Positions 3,360 through 31,457 of a stretch of 36,865 bases of DNA are shown here, in pieces. This DNA is from Candidatus Aminicenantes bacterium (lineage in GTDB: Bacteria; Acidobacteriota; Aminicenantia; Aminicenantales; Saccharicenantaceae): contig JBBIRN010000001.1 in the NCBI GenBank assembly GCA_037441785.1, forward strand, positions 1-36,865, written 5' to 3'. A program made the position numbers and the translations under genes. The notes under the pieces are model-generated. The model was not told the origin of the DNA and made no database searches. It saw nothing but the letters and a program-made list of their open reading frames with translations. Numbering within the stretch: the first letter of the stretch is position 1; each line of letters opens with the position of its first letter.

Positions 3360-4718
3360 ATGAAAAGGTTAGGAGCGGGGCTTTTGCTCATTCTTTTTGC
3401 TCTAAGCCCAGCAGTTTGGGCTCAGTTGGTTAATCCGGCTCAGAAAAAGGCTGACCAGGTTAAAAAGCTGGAAATAATTGAGCCGACCAGCATTAAACTC
3501 AACCGGACGGAAGTTTATGTCTTTTACAATCGGGGGTTAGTCACAGCTTCCAAGGAAGGCTATAAGCTGGTTGCAACTATACTTCCAGAGAATGCCACTA
3601 ATAAGAATGTTATCTGGGAATCAAGCGACCCAACAGTGGTGGAAGTGAGCAAAGATGGTTATCTGACACCAAATAAACTTGGTTCAGCCGTGATTACAGC
3701 TACGGCTCAGGCCAATGGTATTAAGGCTCAATGCCGGGTCTATGTGCAGCGCCGGAACCATCCTTTTGGCAATACCGTAAGCAATCTGAATAACTTGGGT
3801 TATCTGGCTGTTCAGAATGACTGGATATATTTTGCCAATCCTTCATTCGGCATGGGACTTTACAAAATGAAGCTGGATGGTAGTGAGAAACAAATGGTAT
3901 TGAAAAATACCATTTATCATACTGGCTGTATAAATGTTATTGGTAACCAGATTTATTATCTGGCCAGTGGGTCGTGGGTTCATAAAGTTGATATTTATGG
4001 AGAAAATTTAAAAGTGTTAAATCCAGCTCTTGCAGCCATACATATCTTAGCTGTCCCGGGCAGAGTTTTCCATCTTTCTGAGCGGCCGAACACAGGATAT
4101 GGTGTTTACTATGTTGATACTGAAGGAATGAATAGAAATGTACTTGATTGGGAATTCCCCCAGAGCATATGGAGGATTGCTGGAATTGATGATTGGTTTG
4201 TTTTTGCGGATGGAAGAGGAGACATTTATTACATACGCAAGATAAATAATACGCAGTGGTCTGAACCTGATAAGATATCTGGAGAAGGTCAATGGAATTT
4301 TGTGCTTGAGACATTCTCTGTTGGTGACTATGTAGATGCAGCTGTTAGTCCGGCGTTTGTTTATGTGATTGACTATAAGATGAATTCCATTAAAAAAATC
4401 GGGCCTGTAGGCGATAAAAAGAAGAGGAAAACTGAAGTACTATTTAGAAGCCAGGGGCAGGAGCCTATTAAAGGATTGGCTGAGTCTGAAGATTGGTTGT
4501 TCTATTCTACTGAAGGTGTTTTAAGTAAGATAAAGAAAGACGGGACGCAAAACCAGATAATAGATAACCGCTTGCCGGCCGGGCAACATTTTCTTTTTCC
4601 GGTCAGGACGGGCAATAATCCCAATGACCTGTGGATTTATGTTTATACTCTTGACGCCAACAAAAAATTCAGCCTGTTCAAGATTCGGCACGACGGGATG
4701 GGCAAAACCAACATCTAA
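3360..4718 (+). CDS. Secreted protein with Big_2 Ig-like domain and DUF5050-like beta-propeller
   Basis: Strong RBS AAGAGGAGG before ATG 3360. Signal peptide LLLILFALSPAVWAQ. Big_2-like block VIWESSDPTVVEVSKDGYLTPNKLGSAVITATA. Repeated WIYFAN/GLYKMKLDGSEKQ-type blades resemble DUF5050. Confidence 0.75.
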   Translation: MKRLGAGLLLILFALSPAVWAQLVNPAQKKADQVKKLEIIEPTSIKLNRTEVYVFYNRGLVTASKEGYKLVATILPENATNKNVIWESSDPTVVEVSKDGYLTPNKLGSAVITATAQANGIKAQCRVYVQRRNHPFGNTVSNLNNLGYLAVQNDWIYFANPSFGMGLYKMKLDGSEKQMVLKNTIYHTGCINVIGNQIYYLASGSWVHKVDIYGENLKVLNPALAAIHILAVPGRVFHLSERPNTGYGVYYVDTEGMNRNVLDWEFPQSIWRIAGIDDWFVFADGRGDIYYIRKINNTQWSEPDKISGEGQWNFVLETFSVGDYVDAAVSPAFVYVIDYKMNSIKKIGPVGDKKKRKTEVLFRSQGQEPIKGLAESEDWLFYSTEGVLSKIKKDGTQNQIIDNRLPAGQHFLFPVRTGNNPNDLWIYVYTLDANKKFSLFKIRHDGMGKTNI

Positions 4719-4760
4719 AAAAATGGGAACACTTTCTATATTTCCTATTTTTTTTTCTGG
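4719..4760 (+). repeat. Solo 'unit A' arm of the GGGGAC repeat family (no core attached)
   Basis: AAAAATGGGAACACTTTCTATATTTCCTATTTTTTTTTCTGG starts at the base after TAA 4716-4718. It aligns with the first ~40 nt of the elements at 14792, 22226 and 26771. Confidence 0.6.
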
Positions 4761-9371: not shown

Positions 9372-12242
9372 ATGGAGAAAATCTGGGCCCGTGGCCTCAA
9401 GTTCAGCTGGCTGATTATTTTCCTTATCCTCGCCCTAACCGTCTTTTTTGCCTTACATTTCAAATACATCCAGTTCCAGAATAAATTTACTTCCTGGTTA
9501 CCCCAGGAGGACCCAGTGGTCAAGCTGCTCCTGGATACTGGAGAAAAGTTTGGTTCTAACGAGCTGGTGCTGGTAACCATTAAGGCCCGGACTGGAGAAA
9601 CGTTCCGTCCGGAAATTCTTCAGGCCTTGAAAAAGGCTACCGAAGAACTCAAGCAGCAGAAGGAAGTTTTTTATGTCACCTCTCTGATTACTGCCCCGCA
9701 CGTAGAAAGAGCCGGAGATGAGGTAGTGGTTAAAGATTTTCTTGATGAAATTCCCGTGTCTCAGGACGAACTAAACCAAAAATTAAAAGAAGCCCTCCTC
9801 AAAGAAAATTATGTTCACACGTATTTGTCACCGGATGGTCAGTGGCTGGGCGCAGCTGTTTATCTCCGGAGTGGGGTGGACAGTGCCGCGGCTTTTGAAC
9901 AGGTGGTTAAGCGAATTATGGAGAAGCATCTTGGAGAAAAAGCCGAGCTCCATTATTCAGGGGAGCCCTGTTTTACTTATTATGCTGACTTCTACCTGAA
10001 AAAAGATTTGCGGGTGTTAATCCCCATCATCATCCTGACGGTTCTGTTAATTCTTTATTTAAGCTTCAGAACACTGCGCGCGGTTTTCCTGCCTTCTCTG
10101 GTGGTTTGGCTGTCCACAGCCTGGGTGTTCGGGCTGATGGGCCTTTTCCGTGTACCCATGAACCTGATGACTCCAGCCCTGCCGGTTCTGCTTATCGGGT
10201 TAGGCTCAGCTTACGGCCTGCATCTGGTAAATGCTCTGGAACAGAATAAGCACGAAGGCCTGAGCCGGTCTGAGTGGGTGGCTCAAAGTTCCAGCCGGGT
10301 GGCTTTGCCTATTTTTATGGCCGCGGCTACCACCGCGGTGGGCTTTGCCTCTTTTCTTACCGCCAAGTTGGGACTGGTTTATAATTTCGGCATTTTTGCT
10401 GCGGTCGGTATTATGCTGGCCATGGTTATTGCCTATGCTCTTATTCCCTCGGTCTTCTATCTTCTTCCTGAAAGACCGGCCAAAAACAGAGAAAGAACCA
10501 TTTCTCTGGTAAACCCCCAGTTTTTTCGCTGGCAGGCCGCCAAGGTCATCAAATACCATAGAGTCATCATCGTGGCCACGCTGGTAGTGTTAATTTTCTT
10601 TGTTATCTGGATTCCTCGGATAAAAAGGGAAGTGAATTTCACCAGCTACTTCCCCGCGGATAGTGAGCCACGTCAGGCAGACCGGATTGTTCGCAGCCAT
10701 TTTGATGGGGCTTCTCCGCTCAGCCTTTATTTTAAGACGGCCAACTTGAAATCAGCCTCCGCTCTGAGAGTTCTTAGAAGGGCAGAAAATTTCCTGTTTT
10801 CCCTGCCTGATTGCGGCTTGCCGCTCTCCGTGGCTGACCTGGTGGAAGAACTCAACGAGAAAATGAACGGTCGTTACAGCCTGCCCGAAACTGACGGCCA
10901 GGTAGCCAACCTGTGGTTTTTCCTTGAAGGGCGGGATGAGCTTCGCCAGTTAATAAGCGATGATTTTACTGAAGGCTTGGTCTTTTCCCGCACTTCAGCC
11001 ACCAGAACAGAAAAACACTGGGCCCTGAGGCGGGCCATCAGTAATTTTTTGAGCCAGGAAATGCAGCAAAAATTTAAAGCCGTATCCCTGGATGGTCTTT
11101 CTCCCGAAGTGGCCGCGGAGCTGAGAAAAAAAGAAGCTTACTACCTTCTGGAGGAGCTTGAATGGCTGCTCAGCCGCTACGCTCCCGGGCAGCAAATGCC
11201 GCGGGCTGAAGTTCAGAAGCGGCTAGAAAACATTCTGGATAGCTGGCCAGCAGTTTCGGACCAAGAAGTTGTAACAGAATGGCGTTCAGAACTGGAAAAG
11301 TATATACGGCCAGAGTCCTTTGATTTTGCCCTCAGCGAAAGCGACGCCAGAAAACTAATTGCTCAATTGACAGATGCTCTGGCCAGGAACCATTCTACCA
11401 GGGAAGATTTTCAGATAGTCCTGAAGAGCGTGGTGGCAAAAAATCAGTACGACGAGGAGACCGCCGGAAGAGTTGTTTCCACCCTTGAGTTGAGGCTTAA
11501 GGAAGCCAGAGAAAAAGTTGCTCTGGAAAGAGAAAAACAAGCCCTCTGGCCTTTGATTCCAGAGCCAGCGCGGCAGAATTCTAATTTCCTCAGGCGGTTT
11601 GAAGGGCTGCTGCTGGAAATAAACGACGAGCTGGTAGTGCTGCCAGAAAAGAATCTTGGCCCGGTGGAGCAGACCGCAGCCGGTAAGGTCAGGGAAGTTA
11701 CTTTTGACCGCATTGATCAGAGCGGCTTGCCTCCAGCTTTAACTCAGCTTGACCACTACCTTTTTGTCTCTCAGCTTCAGTCTTTTGCTCTGGCGCTGCT
11801 GCTGACTTTTATCATCATGCTGCTCATCAGACGTTCCTTGAAGCTGGGGCTTACTTCCGTAACTCCGATTGTTTTCACCCTGGGTGTGGTTTATGGATTT
11901 TTTGGCCTGGCCGGGGTGGAGCTTGATTACGTAACCATGATGGTGGCTTCAGTGTCTATCGGCGTGGGTATTGACTACTCCATTCATTTTGTCCATGGAG
12001 TGATGATGGGCTTGAAGCAGGGCAAGAGTATGGAAGAAGCCATAACCCTAGCTTTCCAGGAAAAGGGCGCGGCCATCATGGCCAATTCTCTTGCGGTGAT
12101 GCTGGGGTTTGCCGTGCTGCTGCTGGCTTCTATGAGTCCGTTGCGCACTTTCGGTGGAATAATGGTTGGTTCAATGTTCCTAGCTGCTCTGTCGGCTCTG
12201 ACTATTTTGCCCGCTTTGTTGTTGCGGGTGAAGGTTAAATAA
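9372..12242 (+). CDS. MMPL / RND-superfamily exporter (HpnN/MmpL-like) with an enlarged second extracytoplasmic domain
   Basis: GGAGGAGG RBS. Two 6-TM bundles carry the conserved blocks GLGSAYGLHL and GVGIDYSIHF. About 340 charged, helical residues lie between the bundles. Confidence 0.85.
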   Translation: MEKIWARGLKFSWLIIFLILALTVFFALHFKYIQFQNKFTSWLPQEDPVVKLLLDTGEKFGSNELVLVTIKARTGETFRPEILQALKKATEELKQQKEVFYVTSLITAPHVERAGDEVVVKDFLDEIPVSQDELNQKLKEALLKENYVHTYLSPDGQWLGAAVYLRSGVDSAAAFEQVVKRIMEKHLGEKAELHYSGEPCFTYYADFYLKKDLRVLIPIIILTVLLILYLSFRTLRAVFLPSLVVWLSTAWVFGLMGLFRVPMNLMTPALPVLLIGLGSAYGLHLVNALEQNKHEGLSRSEWVAQSSSRVALPIFMAAATTAVGFASFLTAKLGLVYNFGIFAAVGIMLAMVIAYALIPSVFYLLPERPAKNRERTISLVNPQFFRWQAAKVIKYHRVIIVATLVVLIFFVIWIPRIKREVNFTSYFPADSEPRQADRIVRSHFDGASPLSLYFKTANLKSASALRVLRRAENFLFSLPDCGLPLSVADLVEELNEKMNGRYSLPETDGQVANLWFFLEGRDELRQLISDDFTEGLVFSRTSATRTEKHWALRRAISNFLSQEMQQKFKAVSLDGLSPEVAAELRKKEAYYLLEELEWLLSRYAPGQQMPRAEVQKRLENILDSWPAVSDQEVVTEWRSELEKYIRPESFDFALSESDARKLIAQLTDALARNHSTREDFQIVLKSVVAKNQYDEETAGRVVSTLELRLKEAREKVALEREKQALWPLIPEPARQNSNFLRRFEGLLLEINDELVVLPEKNLGPVEQTAAGKVREVTFDRIDQSGLPPALTQLDHYLFVSQLQSFALALLLTFIIMLLIRRSLKLGLTSVTPIVFTLGVVYGFFGLAGVELDYVTMMVASVSIGVGIDYSIHFVHGVMMGLKQGKSMEEAITLAFQEKGAAIMANSLAVMLGFAVLLLASMSPLRTFGGIMVGSMFLAALSALTILPALLLRVKVK

Positions 12243-13134: not shown

Positions 13135-13258
13135 GAAAGTAAGAAAAAAGAAGGAAGAAGTAAGAAGAAAAGAGAAGAAGGTAAACGACCTTAACCAGGG
13201 AACAGCCAAAATGACGGCCAAAAATTTTTACTAATAAGCAGTGGAAAGGAGGAGGGAA

Positions 13259-14791
13259 ATGAAAAGACAGACGCTTGTTTCTTTGATAAAAAATATGGGC
13301 AGAGAGAAAATTTCGGCCCGACCTGTCAGACAGCCAGCTGGGAAGCGGCTAATTCCTACAATAATAGTAGGAATTGGGCTACTTCTGTTTTCTGGCTCCA
13401 GCGCCTGGGCCCAGGTGAAGTATGATTTTTCCGGTATGGTCAAGTTATTCCTCTCCTGCTATGTCAGCCAGAATCAGGCTGGCCCATACTTCTTCCACGA
13501 AAGCGGCGATTTTGCTTTCAAGCGTCTGGAAGGCCGCTTCCGGCTGAAAGCCGCTGTGTCTGATAATGTCTCGGCGGAAGTGAGACTTGACGCTTTTTCC
13601 CGGCCGGATGCGCTTTTCTCCAACCGGAGTTTTCCAGAAGCTGGCCTGCTGGCCGGGCCGGGGCAGAGCGAGCCTTTTGAACTTTCGCTCTACGAGGCTT
13701 TTATCCGAGTTAACCACTTTCTGCTGAAAAACCTGGACCTGGTGGTCGGCAATCAGAGAATTCAATGGGGCACGGCTGATAAGTTGAACGTCATTGACAA
13801 CTTAAACCCGATAGACTTTGCCAATTACCTGACCTTTGACCCGGATTATTACCTTGAACGCCGGCCGCAGACGGCTCTGAACCTGGAATATTACCCCTTT
13901 AAAGACAGCAAACTTCAGCTGGTCTGGTTGCTCAGCAGACAGTATTCACCTCTGCCGGCGGGCTTTTCGGAAATGCTAAAAACCAACCTGGCCGCTCTGC
14001 CTGAACCTCAGGTCAACCTGGAAACCGAAACTTCCAGCTTGAAGCACACCAATTTTGGGCTGCGCTTTTCTACCGTGCTGTTCAATGTTGATGTTGGCTT
14101 AAGCTATTACCGGGGGAATTACAGCCTTCCCTACATTCAGGGAGTTGAAATAAGCCCGCCCTACCAGCCAGGGCCAACGCAGGTTTATTTCCGTTATCCC
14201 GAGAAACAGGTTTTGGGCCTGGACCTGGCTGGAGAAATAAAATCAGTGGGTTTCTGGGCCGAGCTGAGCCGCACCAGACCGGACAAAAAACTGGCCTGGC
14301 TGGATTCCTTTATCTTTGTTGGCCCACAAGTTTTGCCCGTTAACGTTGAATTTCCCCTGATGGATAGCTATTACTGGCAGTGGGTGGTTGGTGCAGATTA
14401 CACTTTTTCTGTGGCTGATGGCCTTTATGTTAATGCTCAGTATCTGCACGGGTTGTTTGATGAGGTGGCCTTCAGTCCTCTGGCCAGAAATTATTTTGGA
14501 CTGCGCCAGGGCATGTGGTTCGGGCAACTTCAGGATTACCTGGCCGGACGGGCGGAGTTGAGACTGCTGAAAAGCGACCTTAAGCTGAGTCTTAATTCCA
14601 TGGTGTCATTTAACTCTAACGAGACCACCAAAGCCTCGGCCATTCTTTACCCGAGCGTAGAATACAAGATTCACGACGCCTTTTATCTTCAGGCCGGCGG
14701 CATCCTGGCTTTCGGCGATAAAGACAGGTCAAAGTTTGGCAGCTTCAGCCGCGACCGGATAGTCTACTTGATGACCAAAGTCTCCTTTTAA
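13259..14791 (+). CDS. Putative outer-membrane beta-barrel protein of the MMPL/LolA-like module, function unknown
   Basis: GGAGGAGGG RBS before ATG 13259 (ORF track starts at GTG 13241). Signal peptide ...GIGLLLFSGSSAWAQ. The sequence is aromatic-rich with an alternating pattern. The C-terminus YLMTKVSF ends in Phe, as in an OMP beta-signal. Confidence 0.6.
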   Translation: MKRQTLVSLIKNMGREKISARPVRQPAGKRLIPTIIVGIGLLLFSGSSAWAQVKYDFSGMVKLFLSCYVSQNQAGPYFFHESGDFAFKRLEGRFRLKAAVSDNVSAEVRLDAFSRPDALFSNRSFPEAGLLAGPGQSEPFELSLYEAFIRVNHFLLKNLDLVVGNQRIQWGTADKLNVIDNLNPIDFANYLTFDPDYYLERRPQTALNLEYYPFKDSKLQLVWLLSRQYSPLPAGFSEMLKTNLAALPEPQVNLETETSSLKHTNFGLRFSTVLFNVDVGLSYYRGNYSLPYIQGVEISPPYQPGPTQVYFRYPEKQVLGLDLAGEIKSVGFWAELSRTRPDKKLAWLDSFIFVGPQVLPVNVEFPLMDSYYWQWVVGADYTFSVADGLYVNAQYLHGLFDEVAFSPLARNYFGLRQGMWFGQLQDYLAGRAELRLLKSDLKLSLNSMVSFNSNETTKASAILYPSVEYKIHDAFYLQAGGILAFGDKDRSKFGSFSRDRIVYLMTKVSF

Positions 14792-15396
14792 AAAATGGGG
14801 ACACCTTCTATATTTCCATTTTTTCTGTGACCCAGCTGGTAGAAAATGGGGACAGGGAAAATGGCGACAGAAAAGGGGACACAGAAAATGGGGATAGAAA
14901 ATGGGGACTTAATCTATATTTCCGATTTTCTTTGGCTTCCGCGGTGGGAAATAACTCACCCCGGGGAAATTAGAGACTCTCTAAATTTGTAGGGAAACTG
15001 GGCACGGTCGGGGAATAGGCAGGCCATAAAAGTGGCCATGCTTTAAAAGTTGTTATTTTCTACCACGACCATTTCCCCTTATTCACCAGTTTTCTTGTTC
15101 CATTATTTTAATAACGCAAATGTAAACAAAATTGTTGGACACGATAAGTTCCTCTCTGTTTTTGCCGCGGTAGATGGATGAAACATAAATTGATTTTCCT
15201 GCGGTTTTGACCTTGTTTAAGGTTCAGGTAGGTTCGGTGGGTGCCTTTCGGGTTAGTCCATCAGGTTATTCCCGAGCAGGTAAGTCATTTGCTCTTCACC
15301 CGTCTTTAAAGCCAGAAATTGGGGTTTAAGTATTATGTCCCCCATTTCCCTAATGTCTCCCGTTTCCCTAATGTCCCCCCGTTTCTCCCGTTTTCC
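14792..15396 (+). repeat. GGGGAC-arm repeat element, copy 1 (605 bp, non-coding)
   Basis: Left arm has 6 GAAAATGGGGAC-type units (14791-14908). The spacer follows, then the 299-bp core at 15036-15334. Right arm has 3-4 inverted units (15337-15396, 18-nt period). It aligns end to end with 22226-22771 and 26771-27292. Confidence 0.9.
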
Positions 15397-15441
15397 TGAT
15401 TGAAGGAAGCAGGAGAAAAATATAAACTTAGATTATAAAAA

Positions 15442-16695
15442 ATGCGTAGAAGAGAAGTCTGGGTCTTTTTTTTGCTGCCATATTTTCTGGTCCTGGGCCT
15501 CTTTACCCTTATGTCCCACCTTAACCGGCAGGCCATCCAGCATGGCGTGGAAAGCCTGGCCAAAGAACAGCTTCAGGCCACGGCTGCAATTTTAAAAGCT
15601 AATATCAAAGAATACATAGAAGCCAAAGGTTCACCTGAAGGTGCGCTGGATAAATTCACTCAACTGGAAGAGGTCTACTTTATGGCCCTGCTGGATGAAA
15701 ATGAGGAGATTATTGACTGGCACTCTCGCTTTGAGGGTTATCTGCCTTTTTCCAGGCGCAACCGCCCGGCCTCAGAATTCTGGGTGACTGATTCTCCGGT
15801 GGGTTCCGTTTTCAACCATTATTCTTCTTTTAAGACCAAGGACGGCCAGGTTTACCGTCTTTATTTAGGCTACTCACTTCACGGGCTGGACCAGCTCCTG
15901 GCTCGCTCGCAAAAGAATTTCTACCTGATCCTGACCATAATGGCCCTGGCCGGTTTGATAATTTTTGCCGGCATTTACCGGTTACACCAGAGTTTTCAGC
16001 GAGCCACAGAGGAAGCCATAAGGCAGGCGGAAGAAAAGGAAAGGTTTAAGGAAATTTCCGGCTTCACGGCTGGCGTGGCGCACGAAATCAAGAACCCGCT
16101 CAACAGCCTGGTGCTGCTCTTTGAACTGCTGGAGAAAAAGGCTCCGCCGGAATTTTCCAGACTGGTCAGCCAGGGAAAAGCTGAAGCCCATAAGGCGGCG
16201 GCGGTGGTGGACCGTTTTTCTGAAATTATCAAACCCCTTAACCTGAAAAAAGAGCGGATAATCCTGAACGAAGTCCTGCAGGAAGAGATCAGCAGCCTGC
16301 GGGGAATGGCCGAAGCCCGTCAGGTGGAAATTGAGCTCAGAGCACCAAAAAAAATTAGCCTGGAGGCTGACCGTCTGTTGCTCGGTCGGGCGGTGCACAA
16401 CCTGATTAAAAATGCCCTGGAAGTATCTTCGCCGGGCCAGAAAGTACTGGTCCAGGCCGAACTGGTAAAGAAAATGGCCGTCTGCTCGGTGATTGACCAG
16501 GGACCGGGCCTGGCACAGGAAGGGGCTGAAAAAATTTTTGAGCCGTTCGTCACCAGCAAGGAAAGTGGCCTGGGTGTGGGCCTGTACCTAGTCCGGAAAA
16601 TTGTAGAAGCCCATGGCGGAAGAGTCTATTTCAGAAAAGGATCCGAGGGCGGTTCCATCTTTACCATGGAAATTCCTGGAGGTCAGGATGTCTGA
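15442..16695 (+). CDS. Sensor histidine kinase (HisKA + HATPase_c), membrane-anchored
   Basis: Two TM segments are present. H-box GVAHEIKNPLNSL, N-box HNLIKNALE, and G-boxes DQGPGL and GLGVGL. Confidence 0.85.
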   Translation: MRRREVWVFFLLPYFLVLGLFTLMSHLNRQAIQHGVESLAKEQLQATAAILKANIKEYIEAKGSPEGALDKFTQLEEVYFMALLDENEEIIDWHSRFEGYLPFSRRNRPASEFWVTDSPVGSVFNHYSSFKTKDGQVYRLYLGYSLHGLDQLLARSQKNFYLILTIMALAGLIIFAGIYRLHQSFQRATEEAIRQAEEKERFKEISGFTAGVAHEIKNPLNSLVLLFELLEKKAPPEFSRLVSQGKAEAHKAAAVVDRFSEIIKPLNLKKERIILNEVLQEEISSLRGMAEARQVEIELRAPKKISLEADRLLLGRAVHNLIKNALEVSSPGQKVLVQAELVKKMAVCSVIDQGPGLAQEGAEKIFEPFVTSKESGLGVGLYLVRKIVEAHGGRVYFRKGSEGGSIFTMEIPGGQDV

Positions 16696-18082: not shown

Positions 18083-18604
18083 CTTGACAAAGGCCATAAA
18101 AAAGAAAAACTATTAAAAAATGAAATAAATTATGACCGCAATAAATCATACACTGACGGCAGCTGTTGTCTGTACTGTGTTTAGGTTCGCTCTTTCAGGC
18201 AGGCGATGGCCGTGCCTGCGGATATGGCCGAGTTCAGAGACAGCGGCCTCGCTCTTCAAATTTCCTTTCTGGTCTGATGAAGCTGGAGCTACGGCCGAAA
18301 AGTATGAAGGGTCAACCAGATGAGATGGTTTCTTGACCCAAGACCTAAAAACTACCACAACGCTGATGGCAAGATGGCCGACGAGCTAAAACGCGCATGT
18401 ATCAAGAAATATGAGACTGAACCCATCAGTGCCGCGGAGGCAGCATTCTCTGAGCTATTGTTCTGTAAACGAGACAACTCAGATTTCCGGCTACAATTAT
18501 TTAACTTTGGCCAAAACTTTTGTGCTGATGGGCCAAGCCTTTGCTGCAGCCAATCTCAAACTTCTGGAGTCCAGGACTCACCATTTTTATAACGAGGCTA
18601 TCTT

Positions 18605-21600
18605 ATGAAAATATTGTTAGGTCCAAACACCAATACCCGCAGGTCTTTTGTAAAAATATTCTTCACGACGCTGGTGATTTTGTTGTTGATGGGACCGTTG
18701 AGCCCGGCCTGGGGCTCTAAGCCGGTGAAGCTCGCAAAATCTCTACCTCTGCCAGGAGAAGTGTTTGAAATTGATGGCCACACGGCATTTGTAATTCTGC
18801 CGGCCAGGGAAAACCTTTATCCCAACCGTCCAATCCCGTGGGTGTGGTATGCGCCTACTTTACCCGATCTACCTGACCAGAACGAACGCTGGATGTTTGA
18901 GCGCTTTCTGGCCGCCGGGATGGCTATCGCCGGTATTGATGTCGGTGAATCGTATGGCAGTCCTCAGGGGCGCGCTGGCTTTTCCGCTCTCTATCGTGAA
19001 CTGGTGGAGAAGCGCGGTTTCAGCCGTAAGCCTTGCCTGCTGGCGCGCAGTCGTGGCGGTCTTATGCTTTATAACTGGGCGGTGGAGCACCCCGATTCAG
19101 TTTCCTGTATTGCCGGCATTTATCCTGTCTGCAACCTGCGGAGCTATCCGGGTCTTGATAAAGCTTGCGGCGCCTATGGTATGAGCGCTGAGCAGCTTGG
19201 CCAGGAACTGGCCAAACACAACCCCGTTGACCGTCTTGCGCCGTTAGCCAGAGCCAGGGTTCCCATATTCCACATCCACGGCGATAAAGACGACCTGGTG
19301 CCACTGTCCGATAACTCCGCCTTGCTCGCCAGTCGCTACCGCGAGCTCGGCGGTTCGATGCGCTTACGGATTGTTCCCGGTCAGGGACATAATCTCTGGG
19401 AGGGATTTTTCCAATGCCAGGAACTTGTTGAGTTCGTCATAGAACATGGCATCCCACCTGCTGAGCGCGAACCCAATGCGGCCTTGTTTAAAGAACCACC
19501 TCTGGAAGCCAGGCCCGGCGCCTTCTGGTCGTGGATGAACGGCTATGTTGACTTAGACAGGTTAACCTACGAACTAGAGGAGATGAAGGCAAAAGGAATG
19601 TCCGGCGCAGAGATCTGGGATATCGGCGTCTACCGCCCGAATCCGGAAGAACCGATTCCGGCTGGTTCGGCTTTCCTCAGCCCTGAATCACTAAAAGCCA
19701 TTAATCACGCCATCAATGTGGCAGACCGTCTGGGACTACACCTGGGAATGGTCGCTTCCAGCAGCTGGAATGCAGGCGGCAGCTGGGTTCAGCCTCGCCA
19801 GGCAATGAAAGGGCTTTACGTGAGTGAAATAAAGGTCAGCGGGCCAACCAGGTTGTCGCGGGTGTTGCCTTTCCCGGCCTGCAGCGCGCCAAAGGGTGCC
19901 AACGGCTTGCCACTTTACTACAAGGAAATTGCCGTGCTGGCTTTTCCGTACTCGCCGGATAATACCATCCGGGATGTCTCCGCGGTCATTAACCTCAGTG
20001 ACAGGATGGACCACAACGGACGGCTCACCTGGGACGTCCCGCCGGGGTCGTGGGTAATCGCCCGTTTCATTACGAGCAACACTGGCGAGAAACTTATGGT
20101 GCCAAGCCCGAACTCAAACGGACTGCTCATTGATCATCTTGATGGCCAGGCCATCAGAACCCATTTTCAGTATATTATTGACCAGATTCTTAAAGTGCGA
20201 CCCAGTCTGGATGCCTTGCGCTACCTGGAACTTGACAGTGTGGAAGTTGATAATCAAACGGACTGGACCGATTCCTTTGTGGAGGAATTCCGCAAGAGGC
20301 GTGGCTATGACCCGACTCCTTATCTGCCTGTTCTGAAAGGTAAGAAATTTGCTGACCCGCAGATTACCGCTCGTTTTCAGCACGATTATAACAAGACGGT
20401 CAGCGATTTGTGGATTGAAGGTCATTACCGCAGTGGTGCTGAGTTTCTGAACCGGTATGGGATGAAACTGGTGGCCGAGGCGGGTCACGGAGGTTACCCG
20501 CGCGCCGAACCACTGCGCGCCTGCGGCGTGGTGGATGTCCCGCGCGGCGAATTCTGGAACGGTGCGCAGTTCTGGATAGTGAAAGAAGCAGCCTCCGCGG
20601 CGCACATCTACGGCCGACAGATTGTTGATGCGGAGTCATTTACCGGCTGGCGGCACTGGCAGGACGGACCTCTGGAGTACAAGCGCCTGGCCGATACCGC
20701 GTTTTGCGATGGGTTGAATCGCCTCACCTTTCACACTTTTGCCCATACACCACCGCAGGGCGGCGTACCCGGACATATGTATCACGCCGGTGAACATTTC
20801 AACGTCAACACCACCTGGTGGCCAAAATCTGGCCCGATGCTTTACTACTTCTCCCGCTGCTGCTATCTGCTGCAGTTGGGGTTGCCTGTGGCTGATGTTT
20901 GCTTCTATTACGGTGATGATGCGCCAAACTTGGTGGCCACCCGCCGTATCGGACCTGATTCCAAGCGGCTGGATTTCGGTCCCACCTGCGCCCATTGTGG
21001 GAGACCCAACCCGGCCCCGGTTGATGTGCTCGGAGCTGGATACGACTATGACGTTGTCAATTCTGATGTGATTGAAAATATGATGGAATTCAGGGACGGT
21101 CGCCTGGTCCTGCCCCACGGTGTAAGTTACTCGGTCATTGTTCTACCGGAACGCTCAGACATTCCTCTTTCTGTGCTGAAGAAACTGGAAAAACTTGTTC
21201 TGGAAGGCGCTATACTGCTCGGTCCCAAGCCTGTGCGCGATGTTACCCTGGCCGATTATCCCCGCTGTGACCAACAGGTTCAGGCTATTGCAGATAGAAT
21301 GTGGGGACCAGGCCAGGTTGATCAGACGGCCGATCGCTCCTACGGCAAAGGCAGGGTAATTGCCGACCGCAAACGTCTCCGGGAAATTCTTCAGCAGTTA
21401 GGCATAGGACCAGATTTCACCTACAGCAGTCCGGATAATCAGGCAGACCTTGATTACATCCACAGACGCACCCCTAACGCCGACATCTACTTTGTCAGCA
21501 ACACAAAGATGGAAGAAGCTGTGGCTGATTGTACCTTCCGCGTCTCCGGACGTCTGCCGCAGTTCTGGTATCCGGACACCGGTAAAATAGAACCCTGCAA

Positions 21601-22225
21601 TCGTTACACCTATGTTTCGGGAGGAACGAAGCTGAGATTGCGGTTGCCTCCGGCCGGCTCGGTTTTCGTCGTCTTTTCCGGGGTAGCGCCTGAAGTCGTC
21701 CCGGCCCCGGCGCCGGAACCAACCGTCAGGACCGTAGCCACACTCGAATTAACAGGTCCCTGGGAAGTTCGTTTCCCACCCGACCTGGGGGCGCCACCCT
21801 CGTACGTTTTTGAAAAACTTGTTTCCTGGACTGCAGTTCCCGATGAGGGAATCAAATATTTTTCGGGAACCGCGACCTATCTGAAAGAATTTGAGGTCCC
21901 GGCCTCTATGGTGGGTGATGGTCAGCGCCTGGAATTGGACCTGGGACAGGTTCGCAACGTCGCCGAAGCCACCTTGAACGGAAAGCCGCTCGGGATTGCC
22001 TGGAAACCTCCCTACAGCTACGATGTCACCGGTGTGGTCCGGGTCGGCAAAAACGAGTTAAAAGTTGAAATTGTAAACCTCTGGGCCAACCGGCTGGTCG
22101 GCGACGCTAAACTTCCGAGGGAAAAAAGGATAACGCGCCTTACCCAAAAAGTGAAAATCAACGGCCCGCTTGAATCCGGGCTTCTCGGACCCGTGCAATT
22201 ACGTGTGTTCAAAGAGACAAAATAA
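18605..22225 (+). CDS. Fusion protein: N-terminal alpha/beta-hydrolase (esterase) + GH106-like glycoside hydrolase with C-terminal GH2-type sugar-binding domain
   Basis: Signal peptide present. Esterase part has RSRGG...HIHGDKDDLVP...GQGHNLW. The GH106-type opening PGAFWSWMNGYVDLDRLTYELEEMKAKGMSG follows. The C-terminus FSGTATYLKEFEVP...LDLGQVRNVAEATLNGKPLG...NELKVEIVNLWANRLVGD is typical of this family. Confidence 0.8.
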   Translation: MKILLGPNTNTRRSFVKIFFTTLVILLLMGPLSPAWGSKPVKLAKSLPLPGEVFEIDGHTAFVILPARENLYPNRPIPWVWYAPTLPDLPDQNERWMFERFLAAGMAIAGIDVGESYGSPQGRAGFSALYRELVEKRGFSRKPCLLARSRGGLMLYNWAVEHPDSVSCIAGIYPVCNLRSYPGLDKACGAYGMSAEQLGQELAKHNPVDRLAPLARARVPIFHIHGDKDDLVPLSDNSALLASRYRELGGSMRLRIVPGQGHNLWEGFFQCQELVEFVIEHGIPPAEREPNAALFKEPPLEARPGAFWSWMNGYVDLDRLTYELEEMKAKGMSGAEIWDIGVYRPNPEEPIPAGSAFLSPESLKAINHAINVADRLGLHLGMVASSSWNAGGSWVQPRQAMKGLYVSEIKVSGPTRLSRVLPFPACSAPKGANGLPLYYKEIAVLAFPYSPDNTIRDVSAVINLSDRMDHNGRLTWDVPPGSWVIARFITSNTGEKLMVPSPNSNGLLIDHLDGQAIRTHFQYIIDQILKVRPSLDALRYLELDSVEVDNQTDWTDSFVEEFRKRRGYDPTPYLPVLKGKKFADPQITARFQHDYNKTVSDLWIEGHYRSGAEFLNRYGMKLVAEAGHGGYPRAEPLRACGVVDVPRGEFWNGAQFWIVKEAASAAHIYGRQIVDAESFTGWRHWQDGPLEYKRLADTAFCDGLNRLTFHTFAHTPPQGGVPGHMYHAGEHFNVNTTWWPKSGPMLYYFSRCCYLLQLGLPVADVCFYYGDDAPNLVATRRIGPDSKRLDFGPTCAHCGRPNPAPVDVLGAGYDYDVVNSDVIENMMEFRDGRLVLPHGVSYSVIVLPERSDIPLSVLKKLEKLVLEGAILLGPKPVRDVTLADYPRCDQQVQAIADRMWGPGQVDQTADRSYGKGRVIADRKRLREILQQLGIGPDFTYSSPDNQADLDYIHRRTPNADIYFVSNTKMEEAVADCTFRVSGRLPQFWYPDTGKIEPCNRYTYVSGGTKLRLRLPPAGSVFVVFSGVAPEVVPAPAPEPTVRTVATLELTGPWEVRFPPDLGAPPSYVFEKLVSWTAVPDEGIKYFSGTATYLKEFEVPASMVGDGQRLELDLGQVRNVAEATLNGKPLGIAWKPPYSYDVTGVVRVGKNELKVEIVNLWANRLVGDAKLPREKRITRLTQKVKINGPLESGLLGPVQLRVFKETK

Positions 22226-22771
22226 GAAAATGGGGACACCATGTATATTTCCATTTTTTCTGTGACCCATCTGGTAGAAAATGGGGACAGAAATGGGGGC
22301 AGGGAAAATGGCGAGAGAAAAGGGGACACCATCTATATTTCCGATTTTCTTTGGCTTCTGCGGTGAATATAACTCCCCCCGGGGAAATTAGGGACTCTCT
22401 AAATTTGTAGAGAAAAATACTGGGCACGGTCGGAAATTGGGCATAACCTAAAAGCGACCATGCTTTAAAAGTTGTTATTCTCTACTACGACCATTTCCCC
22501 TTATTCACCAGTTTTCTTGTTCCATTATTTTAATAACGCAAATGTAAACAAAATTGTTGGACACGATAAGTTCCTCTCTGTTTTTGCCGCGGTAGATGGA
22601 TGAAACATAAATTGATTTTCCTGCGGTTTTGACCTTGTTTAAGGTTCAGGTAGGTTCGGTGGGTGCCTTTCGGGTTAGTCCATCAGGTTATTCCCGAGCA
22701 GGTAAGTCATTTGCTCTTTGCCCGTCTTTAAATCCAGAAATTGGGGTTTGAGTATTGCGTCCCCCGTTTTC
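22226..22771 (+). repeat. GGGGAC-arm repeat element, copy 2 (546 bp), filling a convergent intergenic region
   Basis: Left arm has 5 units. The core at 22458-22756 differs from copy 3 at a single position. There is one inverted unit at the right end. The element is bounded by TAA 22223-22225 (+) and by the TAA on the complement of 22772-22774. Confidence 0.9.
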
Positions 22772-24052
22772 TTAGTCGTAGAGTTGCCATTCGCCGGAAT
22801 GGTTTTCAGGAAGTTTTGATTTCTCTTCCCATACCTTGAGCAAGTAGTCTTTGCTATCCTCAAAAATCTGCGCCTGCCGCTCCACCTCCTGTTCGGCCTG
22901 CTCTGAACTCAGGTCCCAGGTGCTGCGGATAAAATCAGCTATCCGGGCGTAATAAAGCGGTGTTACTAACTCGATAATCTTGAACCGGTTCCTGGGCCAG
23001 GCATGGAAGGTAGCAGCCAGCTCGTACAGGATTTTTACCCAGGCCTCAACCGGAAGTCTGAAGTCCTGGACCGTTAGCCTGGAGGCAGCTTCCACGGCGG
23101 CATAGGCTTCCTCGGAAAACAATTCTTTCCACAGTGGCGAGAATTGCTTGAAACCCACTTTAAAACGGTAAATCAAGTCGGGCAGGGCCACTTCCACTGG
23201 TTCTGGTTCCCTGGCCTCTATCTGGCCCAAGATTTCCACCGGCTGGCTCCCTTTCACCATTTTCCAGTACGGTTCATACTGCTCCATCAACGTAAACAAT
23301 ATCCACAGCACCTGCCGGAACATCGGTCCCAGTTGCCTGGAAGGATCCTTGACGTCGTGAATTTTAACCCCCAGGTTGGCCTGGCAGATTTTGAAGCCTT
23401 GGATAATAGCATTGGTAGTCATCCAGATATCAATGCCAAAGCGAGCCACGTCTGTGTCCCAGACCTCCTGGCTTATGTAAAACTCAGCTACCTTCCGATT
23501 GAAAGCAAAATCCCCGCCGATAGGCTGGCGAATTCTTTTGCCGTAAAGAGCTCGGGTCAGGTTATAAACAATATTATTAGTAATGGTGCCATCGTACTTG
23601 TGCCGCTGATAAATCGGTGCTACGAAGTCATAGCCCTTTGCCAGGACAGGGTTTAGCAGGTTAAAGACCCAGTCCGAAGTAATGCTGCGCAAATCGGCAT
23701 CAACCACGGCACAGGCCTGAACTTTGAGTTTGCAGGCCGCTTCAAAAACCGATCGCAGGGCCGAGCCTTTTCCGCCAATACCACGGTAAATGGAAATCAA
23801 TTTTTCCTGCCAGGGTTTTATCTGGAATTCCTTGGCCATTTCTCGAGTGTCGTCTGTTGACCCCCCGTCAGCGATGAAGATAAGATTCCGCTTGTTCCGG
23901 TAATATTTATCCAGCCCGTGGGTAACCATCTGGATGACGTGGGCGATTGTCTTTTCATTGTTGAAGCAGGGAATGCCGACGATTATATCAGCCTGGCCGA
24001 TTTCTTCCAGACGTTTCAGAGTATAGGCCCTTAATGAAGTTGAATAACTCAC
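22772..24052 (-). CDS. GT-A fold (GT2-like) glycosyltransferase, possibly a glucosylglycerate / mannosylglucosylglycerate-type synthase
   Basis: GIPCFNNEKTI...ADGGSTDDT...VVDADL (DxD) motifs. GTG start with no clear RBS. The functional guess rests only on the neighbouring GpgS-like and MPGP-like genes. Confidence 0.7.
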   Translation of the reverse strand: MSYSTSLRAYTLKRLEEIGQADIIVGIPCFNNEKTIAHVIQMVTHGLDKYYRNKRNLIFIADGGSTDDTREMAKEFQIKPWQEKLISIYRGIGGKGSALRSVFEAACKLKVQACAVVDADLRSITSDWVFNLLNPVLAKGYDFVAPIYQRHKYDGTITNNIVYNLTRALYGKRIRQPIGGDFAFNRKVAEFYISQEVWDTDVARFGIDIWMTTNAIIQGFKICQANLGVKIHDVKDPSRQLGPMFRQVLWILFTLMEQYEPYWKMVKGSQPVEILGQIEAREPEPVEVALPDLIYRFKVGFKQFSPLWKELFSEEAYAAVEAASRLTVQDFRLPVEAWVKILYELAATFHAWPRNRFKIIELVTPLYYARIADFIRSTWDLSSEQAEQEVERQAQIFEDSKDYLLKVWEEKSKLPENHSGEWQLYD

Positions 24053-24297
24053 ATTTTGATTATCACGGTTTTTCTTCCGGATGTCAAAATTTCATTTTAG
24101 TTAGGAGAAACGGCAGTATTTTTTGGTAAATTATCAAAAGATATTTGACCGTCGGGATAGAAAAGAAAATACTTTTTAACTTGAAGCCTGGGGAAAAACC
24201 AGAAGAGTGACCTGTTATAAGGTTGGCCCGAAGAAAAATTCAAGAGGCCGTGGGTATTGAATAACAATTACTTACTATTAAGCACAAACTTAAAAAA

Positions 24298-24312
24298 GCA
24301 ACCGACGAACCA
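24298..24312 (-). promoter_or_regulatory. Candidate sigma54 -24/-12 promoter (TGGTTCGTCGGTTGC on the minus strand)
   Basis: GG and TTGC have the correct spacing relative to TGGCACG-N4-TTGCW, about 245 nt upstream of the minus-strand GT start. The -24 element deviates from consensus (TTC instead of CAC). No UAS was identified. Confidence 0.25.
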
Positions 24313-24473
24313 AGGTCCCTAAATAGTGTTACGAAATTAAATAAAAGTAACATCAAAACAAAAAGATGTTGACAGCCATGAGTTTTTTAGTTTATGGTAA
24401 AAATGTAAACAATAAAAGTCAGCCAGCACCGATATAAAATATCTTTTATAAATAAATTAAAGAAGAGGTTTTC

Positions 24474-25538: not shown

Positions 25539-25558
25539 AAGTATAAAAGGAGGCTGCC

Positions 25559-26770
25559 ATGTCTGATGTTCACCAAACAGGTGTGGTGCCCACTTTCCAT
25601 CGCCTGGGAGAGTTGAAGATTGAGCGCATGGAACAGGAGCTCAGGGAATTTAATCGCCATCGGCCGATTGCTCTGGTTTTGCCGGTAACTCCGGCTGAAC
25701 TTGACTCGCCGGCTCTAAAAGTAATCCTCCATCATCTTCAAGACATAGATTATTTAAATGAAATAGTGGTGGTGCTTGGCCGAACTGATAAGGAAGAAGA
25801 TTTTCACAAGACAAAAAAGCTATTTTCTGTTTTACCGCAACGGCATCGGGTTATCTGGGCCTCGGGACCTCATCTGGGCGAGCTTTATAAAGTCCTGGAA
25901 GAGGCCGACCTCTCACCCGGTGGCGATGGCAAAGGAAGGTCAGCCTGGGTGGCTTATGGCTATATTCTGGCCCGGGAAGAAAGCCGGGTCATCGCCCTGC
26001 ATGACTGCGATATCGTGAATTACTCCCGGGAATTGCTGGCCCGACTCTGTTACCCGGTGGCTTCGCCCCATATTGATTATGCTTTCTGCAAAGGTTATTA
26101 CGCCAGGGTTACGGATAGACTGCATGGCCGGGTGACGCGTCTTTTTGTGTTTCCGCTCGTCAGAAGCCTTATCAGGATTTATGGCCACCTGCCTTTTCTG
26201 ACCTACCTGGACAGTTTCCGCTATCCGCTGGCTGGTGAATTTTCCATGGTGGCTGAGCTCGCCCGGATAAACAGAATACCTTCAGACTGGGGACTTGAAA
26301 TTGAGACTCTGGCCGAGGTTTACCGGAATTTTTCCCTCAGGCGAATCTGCCAGGCTGAAATCATGGAGACTTACGAGCACAAACATCAGCCTCTCTCAGC
26401 CGAAGATCCCAGCACCGGTCTGATGAAAATGTCCATAGATATTGCCAGGGCCGTCTTCAGAAACCTGGCCATTGAGGGAATTGTTCTGGCCGAAAGCACT
26501 TTGCGGACCCTGATTGTCAATTACCAGCGCACAGCCAAGGACTACGTCAAGCGCTTTCAAGATGAATCAGAAATAAACGGACTGGTATTTGATTATCACA
26601 AAGAAAGCCAGATGACAGAAGCTTTTACCCGGGCCCTGCAAATTGCCGGCCAGAAGTTTCTGGAAGACCCGCTCTATTCACCGCACATCCCCAACTGGAC
26701 CAGGGTGGTAGCTGCCATCCCCGATTTCCTGGACCAGCTTAGCTCTACTGTAGAAGAAATGAACCGCTAA
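25559..26770 (+). CDS. Glucosyl-3-phosphoglycerate synthase-like glycosyltransferase (GT81-type)
   Basis: AGGAGG RBS. The blocks GDGKGRSAW, HDCDI (DxD), HGRVTRL, YPLAGEF and GLEIETL match the conserved blocks I recall for GpgS enzymes. Confidence 0.7.
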   Translation: MSDVHQTGVVPTFHRLGELKIERMEQELREFNRHRPIALVLPVTPAELDSPALKVILHHLQDIDYLNEIVVVLGRTDKEEDFHKTKKLFSVLPQRHRVIWASGPHLGELYKVLEEADLSPGGDGKGRSAWVAYGYILAREESRVIALHDCDIVNYSRELLARLCYPVASPHIDYAFCKGYYARVTDRLHGRVTRLFVFPLVRSLIRIYGHLPFLTYLDSFRYPLAGEFSMVAELARINRIPSDWGLEIETLAEVYRNFSLRRICQAEIMETYEHKHQPLSAEDPSTGLMKMSIDIARAVFRNLAIEGIVLAESTLRTLIVNYQRTAKDYVKRFQDESEINGLVFDYHKESQMTEAFTRALQIAGQKFLEDPLYSPHIPNWTRVVAAIPDFLDQLSSTVEEMNR

Positions 26771-27292
26771 AAAAATGGGGACGCCATCTATATTTCCATT
26801 TTTTCTGTGACCCATCTTGGGGAAAATGGGGGCGGGAAAATGGGGACATAATCTATATTTCCGATTTTCTTTTGCTTCCGCGGTGAAAATTAACTCACCC
26901 CGGGGAAATTAGTAACTCTCTAAATTTGTAGGGAGAAAATTGGGCATGGTCGGAAAATAGGTAGGCCATAAAAGTGGCCATGCTTTAAAAGTTGTTATTT
27001 TCTACTACGACCATTTCCCCTTATTCACCAGTTTTCTTGTTCCATTATTTTAATAACGCAAATGTAAACAAAATTGTTGGACACGATAAGTTCCTCTCTG
27101 TTTTTGCCGCGGTAGATGGATGAAACATAAATTGATTTTCCTGCGGTTTTGACCTTGTTTAAGGTTCAGGTAGGTTCGGTGGGTGCCTTTCGGGTTAGTC
27201 CATCAGGTTATTCCCGAGCAGGTAAGTCATTTGCTCTTTGCCCGTCTTTAAATCCAGAAATTGGGGTTTGAGTATTATGTCCCCCACTTTTT
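26771..27292 (+). repeat. GGGGAC-arm repeat element, copy 3 (522 bp)
   Basis: Left arm has 3 units, the core is at 26978-27276, and one inverted unit ATGTCCCCCACTTTTT lies at 27277-27292. The element starts at the base after TAA 26768-26770. Confidence 0.9.
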
Positions 27293-27351
27293 AACCAAAA
27301 ACTAACATTTGACTCTCATTTTTTTAACATCTTCCCGGTAATTTATAGCCG

Positions 27352-29881: not shown

Positions 29882-29959
29882 AGCACAGAGCCTTAAAATC
29901 TAAAATTTTCTGGCAACCATTTTGTCTTTTCGTCTGTCTTTATTTACGAGGTTTTAAAA

Positions 29960-31353: not shown

Positions 31354-31457
31354 GCACGCTTAAGCAACTATGAGGAAGACAGAAATCACAAAATAAAAAA
31401 AATAAAAACAAGAAAAAATCAAAAGAAATGCGAAAAAAACATGAAAGGAGAAAAATC

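Follow-up and report, generated by a model that had tools for sequence, protein, structure and literature searches.

A noncoding 0.55-kb repeat of an Aminicenantes bacterium, bounded by REP sequences and probably a hybrid composite that acts as a recombination hot spot

A noncoding sequence of about 0.55 kb occurs three times between the genes of a 36,865-nucleotide stretch of DNA from Candidatus Aminicenantes bacterium (GenBank assembly GCA_037441785.1, contig JBBIRN010000001.1, positions 1 to 36,865; here called the window), which raises the question of what kind of element it is and how its copies arose. An initial annotation, made from the sequence alone, described an unrecognized repeat family with arms of arrayed short units and favored a nonautonomous miniature inverted-repeat transposable element (MITE) with ends for a multimeric DDE transposase. 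We conclude with high confidence that the arms of the element are repetitive extragenic palindromic (REP) sequences of a system formed by REPs and REP-associated tyrosine transposases (RAYTs), which are domesticated transposases of the IS200 type. We also think it probable that the element as a whole is a hybrid, nonautonomous, REP-bounded noncoding composite, similar to bacterial interspersed mosaic elements (BIMEs) and to REP doublets forming hairpins (REPINs), that acts as a recombination hot spot. New here are the Aminicenantes REP families, the way in which they are fused to stop codons, and the hybrid composite; the kind of system is already known. The description of the family as unrecognized therefore holds for the 0.55-kb composite and the Aminicenantes REPs and does not hold for the kind of element; no paper found in our literature search linked Aminicenantes to such repeats.

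Layout of the three copies

A repeat search of the whole window, together with alignment, confirmed the three same-orientation copies and the single solo arm reported earlier. The copies occupy 14790-15396, 22225-22771 and 26770-27290, all within 12.5 kb, and the element measures 520 to 605 nt. The repeat search returned a family of about 300 nt (14995-15294, 22417-22716 at 96% identity and 26937-27236 at 98%), a left-arm family of 71 nt at 87 to 89% identity, a spacer family of 111 nt at 61 to 89% ungapped identity, and a 48-nt unit at seven places in the window, which include the solo arm (4705-4752). The spacer is more diverged than the core, as had been stated, and the core, given earlier as 98 to 100% identical, measured 96 to 98% relative to copy 1.

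Each copy consists, in order, of a type-1 REP, an array of REP half-sites, a second type-1 REP, a spacer of about 105 nt, a core of about 300 nt and an inverted type-2 REP; copy 1 alone has extra half-sites beyond the inverted type-2 REP. The gap within the two type-1 units is 4 nt, where 5 had been reported. The right arm had been read as one to four inverted copies of the left-arm unit. It is instead a complete type-2 palindrome of about 35 nt, and further inverted half-units are present in copy 1. Because the right end is a complete inverted REP of a second type, we describe the layout as that of a hybrid composite. The features are as follows.

14790..14827, plus strand: copy 1 type-1 REP "A" AAAAAATGGGGACACCTTCTATATTTCCATTTTTTC (nhmmer with the REP profile, E = 3.7e-12; DNA hairpin of -5.0 kcal/mol, z = -2.5)
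14842..14896, plus strand: copy 1, four tandem REP 5' half-units of 13 to 15 nt, GAAAATGGGGAC-like, in a number that differs by copy and strain
14897..14932, plus strand: copy 1 type-1 REP "B" GAAAATGGGGACTTAATCTATATTTCCGATTTTC (nhmmer, E = 3.6e-10)
14933..15296, no strand: copy 1 variable spacer of about 105 nt and about 260 nt of core, noncoding and apparently species specific
15297..15349, minus strand: copy 1 inverted type-2 REP (reverse complement GGAAATGGGGGACATAATACTTAAACCCCAATTTC) and about 18 nt of conserved inner flank (type-2 profile, E = 8.5e-18)
15350..15396, minus strand: copy 1 only, two to three more inverted REP half-units (ATGTCTCCCGTTTCCCTA, ATGTCCCCCCGTTTC and following)
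22225..22262, plus strand: copy 2 type-1 REP "A" (REP profile)
22277..22317, plus strand: copy 2, three REP half-units (alignment and profile)
22318..22352, plus strand: copy 2 type-1 REP "B" (profile, E = 1.5e-11)
22353..22718, no strand: copy 2 spacer and core
22719..22771, minus strand: copy 2 type-2 REP (type-2 profile)
26770..26807, plus strand: copy 3 type-1 REP "A" (REP profile)
26822..26835, plus strand: copy 3, one REP half-unit (alignment)
26836..26871, plus strand: copy 3 type-1 REP "B" (profile, E = 6.2e-12)
26872..27237, no strand: copy 3 spacer and core
27238..27290, minus strand: copy 3 type-2 REP (type-2 profile)
4718..4754, plus strand: solo type-1 REP (REP profile), kept at the orthologous position in MAG-76 (L039, region 87% identical)

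In the alignment, homology among the three copies starts in an A-run overlapping the stop of the plus-strand gene upstream (14791, 22225 and 26770) and stops after GTCCCCC(A/G)(T/C)TT, from where copy 1 continues with its additional inverted units to 15396. At all six ends, homology between copies terminates precisely at the outer REP termini. The REP-unit profile matched seven sites only, consistent with the earlier statement that arrayed units occur nowhere else in the window, and GTCCCCCRTTT was found at the three right ends and nowhere else, which gives totals of seven type-1 and three type-2 REPs in 37 kb. The number of half-sites ranges from one to five among copies and strains in the manner of a variable-number tandem repeat (VNTR), with five in same-species contigs L058 and L047, four in copy 1, three each in contig L049 and copy 2, and one in copy 3. 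The repeat search found no inverted repeat of at least 40 nt in the window, and the ends of the element are complementary over only about 12 nt; the inverted identity that the termini share is AAAATGGGGGAC/GTCCCCCATTTT.

The arms as REP sequences and their partner transposase

The type-1 unit is an imperfect palindrome of about 35 nt with the consensus AAAAATGGGGACACAATCTATATTTCCTATTTTT. REP units of 33 to 36 nt fold into stems of 9 to 10 bp with conserved loops of 14 to 17 nt, at -3 to -6 kcal/mol. We scanned one genome per species in GTDB with the pattern AATGGGGACNNNNTNTATATTTCC and obtained 46 loci, 45 of which come from Aminicenantes, Saccharicenans, Acidobacteriota or two probably mislabelled metagenome-assembled genomes (MAGs; Eubacteriales and Bacillota). 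The remaining locus, in Pseudoalteromonas, is probably a chance match, and the viral collection gave no match to the pattern. The type-1 profile had 116 matches in about 340 kb of these loci from about a dozen MAGs, on both strands and with about 107 outside long open reading frames (ORFs), a density that is biased because the loci were picked for carrying the motif. What the loci share with the window is only the unit of about 35 nt, never the core, and at orthologous loci across species (L003, L011 and L012) the unit and its adjoining sequence are better kept than the neighboring coding sequence. The unit had been regarded as private to the element; it proved to be a lineage-wide REP sequence.

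The complete palindrome at the right end of the element belongs to the second type, whose reverse complement in relatives reads AAAACGGGGGACACAATACTCAAACCCCAATTTT. Type-2 REPs are also present in L006, L020 and L032. At L006:7390-7480, degenerate tandem type-2-like units (TTTTTTGGGGTTTGAGTATTGTGGCAC and following) adjoin a full type-2 REP, a further case of REP subunit amplification. L059, a relative of 77% identity that is otherwise without type-1 and type-2 REPs, has a perfect palindrome GGGGACACTTATTTGTGTCCCC at 11095-11125, upstream of an extracytoplasmic function (ECF) sigma factor gene, which may be another REP variant. Several MAGs named "uncultured Eubacteriales" (L002, L006, L007, L018, L020, L026 and L035; accessions CAYQZX...) or "Bacillota bacterium" (L023 and L045; JAKPEE...) carry REPs of the Aminicenantes type and RAYTs 60 to 74% identical to Saccharicenans proteins, and these MAGs are probably mislabelled or misbinned.

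The evidence that identifies the arms is their association with a transposase gene in related genomes. In L007, a small contig, a 219-amino-acid ORF (1814-2473) lies between a REP on the plus strand at 1543 and one on the minus strand at 2891, and L050 and L041 have units resembling this REP-transposase-REP arrangement; the longer unit with the same arms and a transposase, which the initial annotation had proposed to look for, thus exists in relatives. The L007 protein matches the IS200-like Y1_Tnp family (PF01797) at 51.7 bits, against a cutoff of 23. Its sole match in the PDB is the Escherichia coli RAYT TnpA_REP (4ER8, E = 0.0014), in an alignment that pairs HVH with HMH at the HxH motif and YVERNPV with YIYINPV at the tyrosine of YxxNPV. 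Close homologues are abundant, and every named one is from Aminicenantes or Saccharicenans. RAYT protein clusters lie mostly on one to five contigs, and one UBA6228 contig carries two paralogues.

Inverted palindromes of about 35 nt flank the RAYT in 7 of 7 loci examined (L007, L041, L050/51, L053, L054, L056/57 and L036), all from related genomes; the L036 locus is a truncated RAYT remnant. Type-1 REPs go with RAYTs that are 65 to 74% identical to the L007 protein, and the RAYTs at 56 to 58% identity (P0042, P0053 and P0057) go with three distinct variants, AAAATGGTGACGCCCTAC..., AAACTGGGGACAGTTCCCC... and AACGGGGGACACAATACTCATTCACCAATTTT. The variant of P0053 is the type-2 REP, which flanks the RAYT of this type in L056/57. 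The REP sequence thus co-varies with the RAYT lineage. Inverted REPs flanking a RAYT and co-variation of the two form the defining genomic signature of such systems, and the co-variation is known in Pseudomonas (PMC3116915, PMC3337134).

These results bear directly on the idea of a MITE derived from a DDE transposon, with a multimeric transposase bound to subterminal arrays as in elements like Tn7, Mu, IS21 or Tn402. Such a MITE would account for the arrayed 13- to 15-nt units, the inverted arms, the terminal identity and the lack of an ORF. However, the units are halves of the palindrome that flanks Y1/HUH genes at all seven loci, their VNTR-like number between strains is unexpected for functional binding-site arrays, the window holds no DDE transposase, and neither the three copies nor 24 REP pairs showed a target-site duplication. 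We therefore consider this explanation very improbable. Because the palindrome flanks a Y1/HUH gene in every one of the seven loci and the PDB relative is TnpA_REP, the arms are REPs and not multisite DDE ends. The earlier view that the arms are transposase-related repeats was correct, as was the report of neither a transposase in the window nor a target-site duplication, and the partner is a Y1/HUH, IS200-like RAYT (PF01797, REP_Tyr_transpos, 4ER8) in place of the multimeric DDE enzyme. A classical MITE also does not fit ends drawn from different REP families.

The REPs have a characteristic position relative to genes. A co-oriented ORF 80 or more codons long ends within 40 nt upstream of 54 of 121 nonredundant type-1 REPs, and in 34 of these 54 (about 60%) its stop codon ends 2 to 6 nt before GGGG (TAA in 26, TGA in 8, TAG in none), because of which the stop merges into the A-run of the REP. 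The same rule applies to all four element-start REPs in the window and, on the other strand, to the type-2 REP of copy 2. In copy 1 the stop ends 5 nt ahead of GGGG, and the A-run of REP "A" is fused to the TAA of a DUF1302-like gene (13241-14791). REP "A" of copy 2 is fused to the TAA stop of a GH106 gene (18605-22225), that of copy 3 to the TAA stop of a gene for a 403-amino-acid protein (25559-26770), and the solo REP to the TAA stop of a DUF5050/Big_2 gene (3360-4718). The outer end of the copy 2 type-2 REP abuts the TAA stop of a convergent minus-strand GT2 gene (22772-24052), and a GT21 gene starts 62 nt downstream of the copy 3 type-2 REP. REPs in the opposite orientation precede ribosome-binding sites by 0 to 20 nt.

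At site 1, the right boundary (15396/7) falls 2 nt before a promoter-like TTGAAG-17-TAAACT of a histidine kinase gene, and homology with L059 resumes at 15398. Because this promoter-like sequence is kept in L059, which lacks the element, the element occupies just the part of the spacer that is dispensable. In 15399-15441 (L059:7940-7981), the ATG of the histidine kinase gene is only 11 nt past the -10 element and a Shine-Dalgarno sequence is absent, which suggests that the mRNA may be leaderless or have a very short leader.

Related MAGs frequently have convergent REP pairs 110 to 340 nt apart, with their A-run ends outward and tight to the neighboring genes; intergenic regions in L034, L022 and L017 are likewise bracketed by such pairs. 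By eye, two convergent pairs in L003 (328-562 and 6564-6819) contain near-consensus sigma-70 promoters (TTGGCA, 17 to 18 nt, TATAAT) that read through the reverse REP into a ribosome-binding site, and transcripts from these would have complementary REPs at both the 5' and the 3' end. REPs fused so tightly to stop codons and ribosome-binding sites hint at wiring into gene expression. That Aminicenantes REPs are more than selfish repeats, setting mRNA ends, stability or insulation, or that the REP termini of the 0.55-kb element are active RAYT cleavage sites, seems to us unlikely. In the first case, a typical transcript would start and end with complementary 33-nt REPs, which might base-pair or serve as binding sites for RAYT or some other protein; in the second, adjacent gene blocks would be gained and lost by RAYT-dependent gene-cassette shuffling.

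Recombination between copies in related strains

We reached contigs of the same species through a 20-mer of the core, the upstream protein and a spurious 30-amino-acid ORF of the core. The element is present in independent same-species contigs from seven other metagenome samples (L047, L049, L058 and L060-L063), and sites 1 and 2 are occupied in every same-species strain seen. Because unit numbers and spacers differ between copies and independent samples carry the element, the copies are no assembly duplicates, a concern that had been raised earlier.

The least credible of the explanations we weighed is that the element is such an artefact or an integron-like system of attC sites and cassettes. 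The contigs of L058, L060 and L061 do break inside the element, gene blocks between the copies are present or absent in the manner of cassettes, and elements stand directly after stop codons, as attC sites do. However, the copies are unlike one another in arms and spacers, and sites 1 and 2 are reproduced by several independent assemblies. For an integron, the window holds no integrase and, by eye, no RYYYAAC/GTTRRRY core sites; at 520 to 605 nt the element is 4 to 10 times longer than attC (57 to 141 nt), and the supposed cassettes are multigene and on both strands.

Comparison of strains showed that the copies exchange sequence, that they recombine to delete the genes between them, and that the right REP terminus serves as a deletion breakpoint. 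In L047 and L049, only one element lies between the GH106 and GT21 genes, and window positions 22766-26767, which hold 4 kb of genes, are missing. This arrangement is the one that recombination between copies 2 and 3 would be expected to produce, and that one element is a mosaic in which some segments resemble copy 1 and others copy 3. In L062 (junction at 15630-15650 of its reverse complement), window position 22770, where the type-2 REP ends on its outer side, directly adjoins position 29616, with 6.8 kb deleted; the deletion ends inside the gene for a 449-amino-acid protein, of which the last 90 codons or so remain, and only a T-run is common at the junction. Spacer alleles are common to different sites in different strains.

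The core differs between sites at 5 to 10 of about 310 positions in the window and at 36 to 40 in L060 and L062, while third-codon positions of the flanking genes differ by only 2.6 to 3.0% between strains; the core thus diverges 2 to 4 times faster than these. The shared spacer alleles and the divergence of the core relative to third-codon positions indicate that the paralogues are old, exchange sequence ectopically and were recently homogenized in the lineage of the window. Recombination between copies adds and removes blocks of glycosyl hydrolase and glycosyltransferase genes between strains. Because the copies exchange, delete and break at a REP terminus, the element acts as a hot spot of recombination within a glycan-gene island that varies between strains.

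The more distant L059 lacks the whole block 18083-29959 (L059:10618-11167), so that the gene for its ECF sigma factor comes immediately after that for the sigma-54 response regulator. In the window this block comprises a 90-amino-acid ORF, the GH106 gene, copy 2, the minus-strand GT2 gene, a HAD/S6PP-like gene, the gene for the 403-amino-acid protein of no assigned family, copy 3, the GT21 gene and a DUF6938 gene of 449 codons. The block behaves as an accessory glycan-gene island, with outer borders that have no REPs. L049 also lacks window positions 30136-32263 (2.1 kb), with its junction (L049:3985-4000) in a 9-nt microhomology CCTGGAAGC; the junction fuses the N terminus of the ECF sigma factor to the C terminus of a DUF4097 protein and reflects a real deletion or else a chimeric assembly.

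In the mechanism that we propose for the composite, a RAYT supplied in trans would act on REP hairpins in single-stranded DNA and copy the unit to three neighboring intergenic sites, with cleavage and joining like those of IS200/IS605 leaving no duplication. Gene conversion anchored in REPs would be an alternative copying route, and the half-site arrays may have come from slippage or from repeated cleavage and rejoining. The RAYT route is favored by boundaries that sit exactly at REP termini and by the L062 breakpoint, and the gene-conversion route by copies that are clustered and all in one orientation, by their hybrid ends and by the abundance of ectopic exchange. We infer that copying by a RAYT in trans is roughly twice as likely as REP-anchored gene conversion.

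A rival history, in which the element is a passive intergenic module spread by RecA-dependent gene conversion or unequal recombination through pre-existing REPs and no transposase ever acted on the whole unit, is possible but in our view doubtful. It would suit three copies inside 12.5 kb in a single orientation and the exchange seen in the mosaic of L049 and in spacer alleles found across sites. Two REP families at the ends are not expected to suit one RAYT together (PMC3337134), other MAGs have convergent REP pairs around unrelated intergenic sequences, and a scan of Joint Genome Institute (JGI) metagenomes with the core 20-mer returned only two more real contigs, both of one locus. That scan is a lower bound, however, because the copies in L060-L063 do not contain the 20-mer. 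Also against the passive module, homology stops precisely at REP outer termini at six of six ends. The L062 deletion, which starts from the exact terminus of the type-2 REP, resembles end-directed cleavage, although T-run microhomology is present there too.

Several findings weigh against our main reading. No RAYT gene is present in the window, and the link between REPs and RAYTs comes from relatives only. The best NCBIfam model for the L007 protein, NF047646 (REP_Tyr_transpos), scores 60.3 bits, under its equivalog cutoff of 80, and this RAYT is a divergent relative outside the curated equivalog set. The REP hairpins are weak, unlike G+C-rich enterobacterial REPs: z-scores over seven folded oligonucleotides run from -1.2 to -3.1, with the weakest near -1.2 to -1.6. 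The two ends come from different REP families, and hybrid REPINs are absent among the REPINs of P. fluorescens SBW25 according to Bertels and Rainey (PMC3337134). Known sites number only three, clustered and in one orientation. At site 1, the spacer in L059 is replaced by 430 nt of unrelated sequence that has no REP, and so is not empty; neither a clean empty site nor an excision product of the whole element was found among the contigs compared, and the deletions that were seen take flanking genes with them. A nearly invariant block within the core, described below, could mean some function.

The interior of the element and its relation to known systems

The interior of about 400 nt shows no coding signal and no sign of conserved RNA structure. 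The element had been called noncoding with no ORF longer than 27 codons; ORFs of 40 to 48 codons are present once GTG and TTG starts, and one ATG, are counted, but the element is noncoding nonetheless, with stops in all frames and no frame that has an excess of synonymous changes. A spurious 30-codon ORF of the core (15253-15345, minus strand) is called as a gene in public assemblies (P0241-P0243) and served as a handle for strain contigs. A search of the protein collection with concatenated spurious core ORFs gave no further copies, and a tblastn search for a RAYT pseudogene inside the core was negative. The core had no homologues by blastn or nhmmer in the 46 loci of the Aminicenantes lineage, the terminal REP excepted, and no matches in plasmids or phages. 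As far as these searches go, the core appears to be confined to this species.

At gathering scores, Rfam 15 matched nothing in the window or in 12 loci, and the element gave only noise at E <= 10. The window has no tRNA or tmRNA genes. Single-sequence minimum free energy (MFE) z-scores are -2.0 on the plus strand and -1.7 on the minus strand. In RNAalifold analysis of five-copy alignments, the covariation term was unfavorable on both strands and many substitutions disrupted predicted pairs, and inspection of 10 copies gave no convincing compensatory pairs. A promoter scan found no site conserved in all copies, and no terminator; by the scan and by eye, no convincing sigma-70 or sigma-54 promoter was common to all copies. 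The REP unit itself was rejected by eye as a promoter, since its GG/GC spacing is unfit for sigma-54 and its spacing is wrong for sigma-70.

An A+T-rich block of about 47 nt, CAGTTTTCTTGTTCCATTATTTTAATAACGCAAATGTAAAC, lies at about 15086-15133 and at the matching place in the other two copies. Only a single site in it varies among 10 copies, compared with about 20% of sites in the remainder of the core. By analogy, this block could be a protein-binding site; BIME-1, for comparison, carries a site for integration host factor (IHF).

The near invariance of this block, the MFE z-scores and the retention of the element at both site 1 and site 2 in every same-species strain seen would all fit a functional core, whether a small noncoding RNA, a type I toxin-antitoxin-like locus or iterons for a regulator, with the REPs as terminators or insulators. 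We regard this as quite improbable. The Rfam, covariation, coding and promoter results argue against it (for promoters, both the scan and inspection by eye), as does the faster divergence of the core. Copy 2 lies between convergent genes and so drives nothing downstream, and the core is absent from the 46 related-genome loci and from the 77% relative.

The hybrid composite that we favor is best compared with REP/RAYT systems such as E. coli TnpA_REP (4ER8) and the Pseudomonas groups. Common to all are short imperfect palindromes that are extragenic, apparently in many copies and on both strands, a single short Y1/HUH gene with inverted flanking palindromes, REPs that co-vary with the RAYT, and no target-site duplication. 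A-runs and T-runs beside the palindrome are also found in P. fluorescens GI doublets (PMC3337134). In contrast, the Aminicenantes (Acidobacteriota) host is a different one, the weak hairpin is rich in A+T and has a large loop of conserved sequence, and about 60% of co-oriented cases have the 5' A-run fused to a TAA or TGA stop. The RAYT is also longer, at about 220 amino acids with a C-terminal extension versus 165 for the E. coli protein.

REPINs also consist of inverted REPs around a noncoding spacer, are nonautonomous and are presumed to be mobilized by RAYTs. However, they are about 70 to 110 nt long, with two REPs of the same group in a single long hairpin (Bertels and Rainey 2011, PMC3116915, PMC3337134), whereas the ends of the element belong to two REP families, its interior of about 400 nt does not fold back, and its left end holds two direct REPs and a half-site array. 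With two REP groups at its ends and a long interior without a hairpin, the element falls outside the definition of a REPIN.

The element shares with BIMEs a mosaic in which different REP types alternate in orientation and are separated by non-REP sequence, a position after gene ends, amplification of subunits and use as join points of rearrangements. In E. coli, BIMEs mix REP types Y and Z with other motifs, some of which bind IHF or gyrase, and these internal motifs measure tens of nucleotides; the interior of the element, at about 400 nt, is unlike them in this respect. Palindrome-associated transposable elements (PATEs), which derive from IS200/IS605, likewise have subterminal hairpin ends for a Y1/HUH transposase and involve neither DDE chemistry nor target-site duplication. 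PATEs keep both ends of one insertion sequence and insert on the 3' side of a fixed target of four or five nucleotides, whereas no such target could be defined for the element beyond a context of T(A/G)A and an A-run. Classical MITEs, such as the Neisseria Correia/NEMIS elements, are also small, noncoding and intergenic, with inverted termini and effects on neighboring genes, but they have a target-site duplication and a DDE-type parent, neither of which was found for the element.

These findings extend the REP/RAYT system to Aminicenantes/OP8, an uncultured and environmentally abundant lineage, and supply consensus sequences for two REP families together with their co-variation with RAYT lineages. 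The hybrid, long-cored, REP-bounded composite is an arrangement reported to be absent from the best-studied REPIN populations. The element accounts for structural variation between strains in a gene island related to polysaccharides and for the assembly breaks of this species at these sites, which is useful for the curation of MAGs. Elsewhere in the window and unrelated to the element, 2705-3175 encodes a protein with a Mut7-C RNase domain (PF01927, E = 6e-49) and a weaker match to DUF5615, which may be a toxin-like nuclease.

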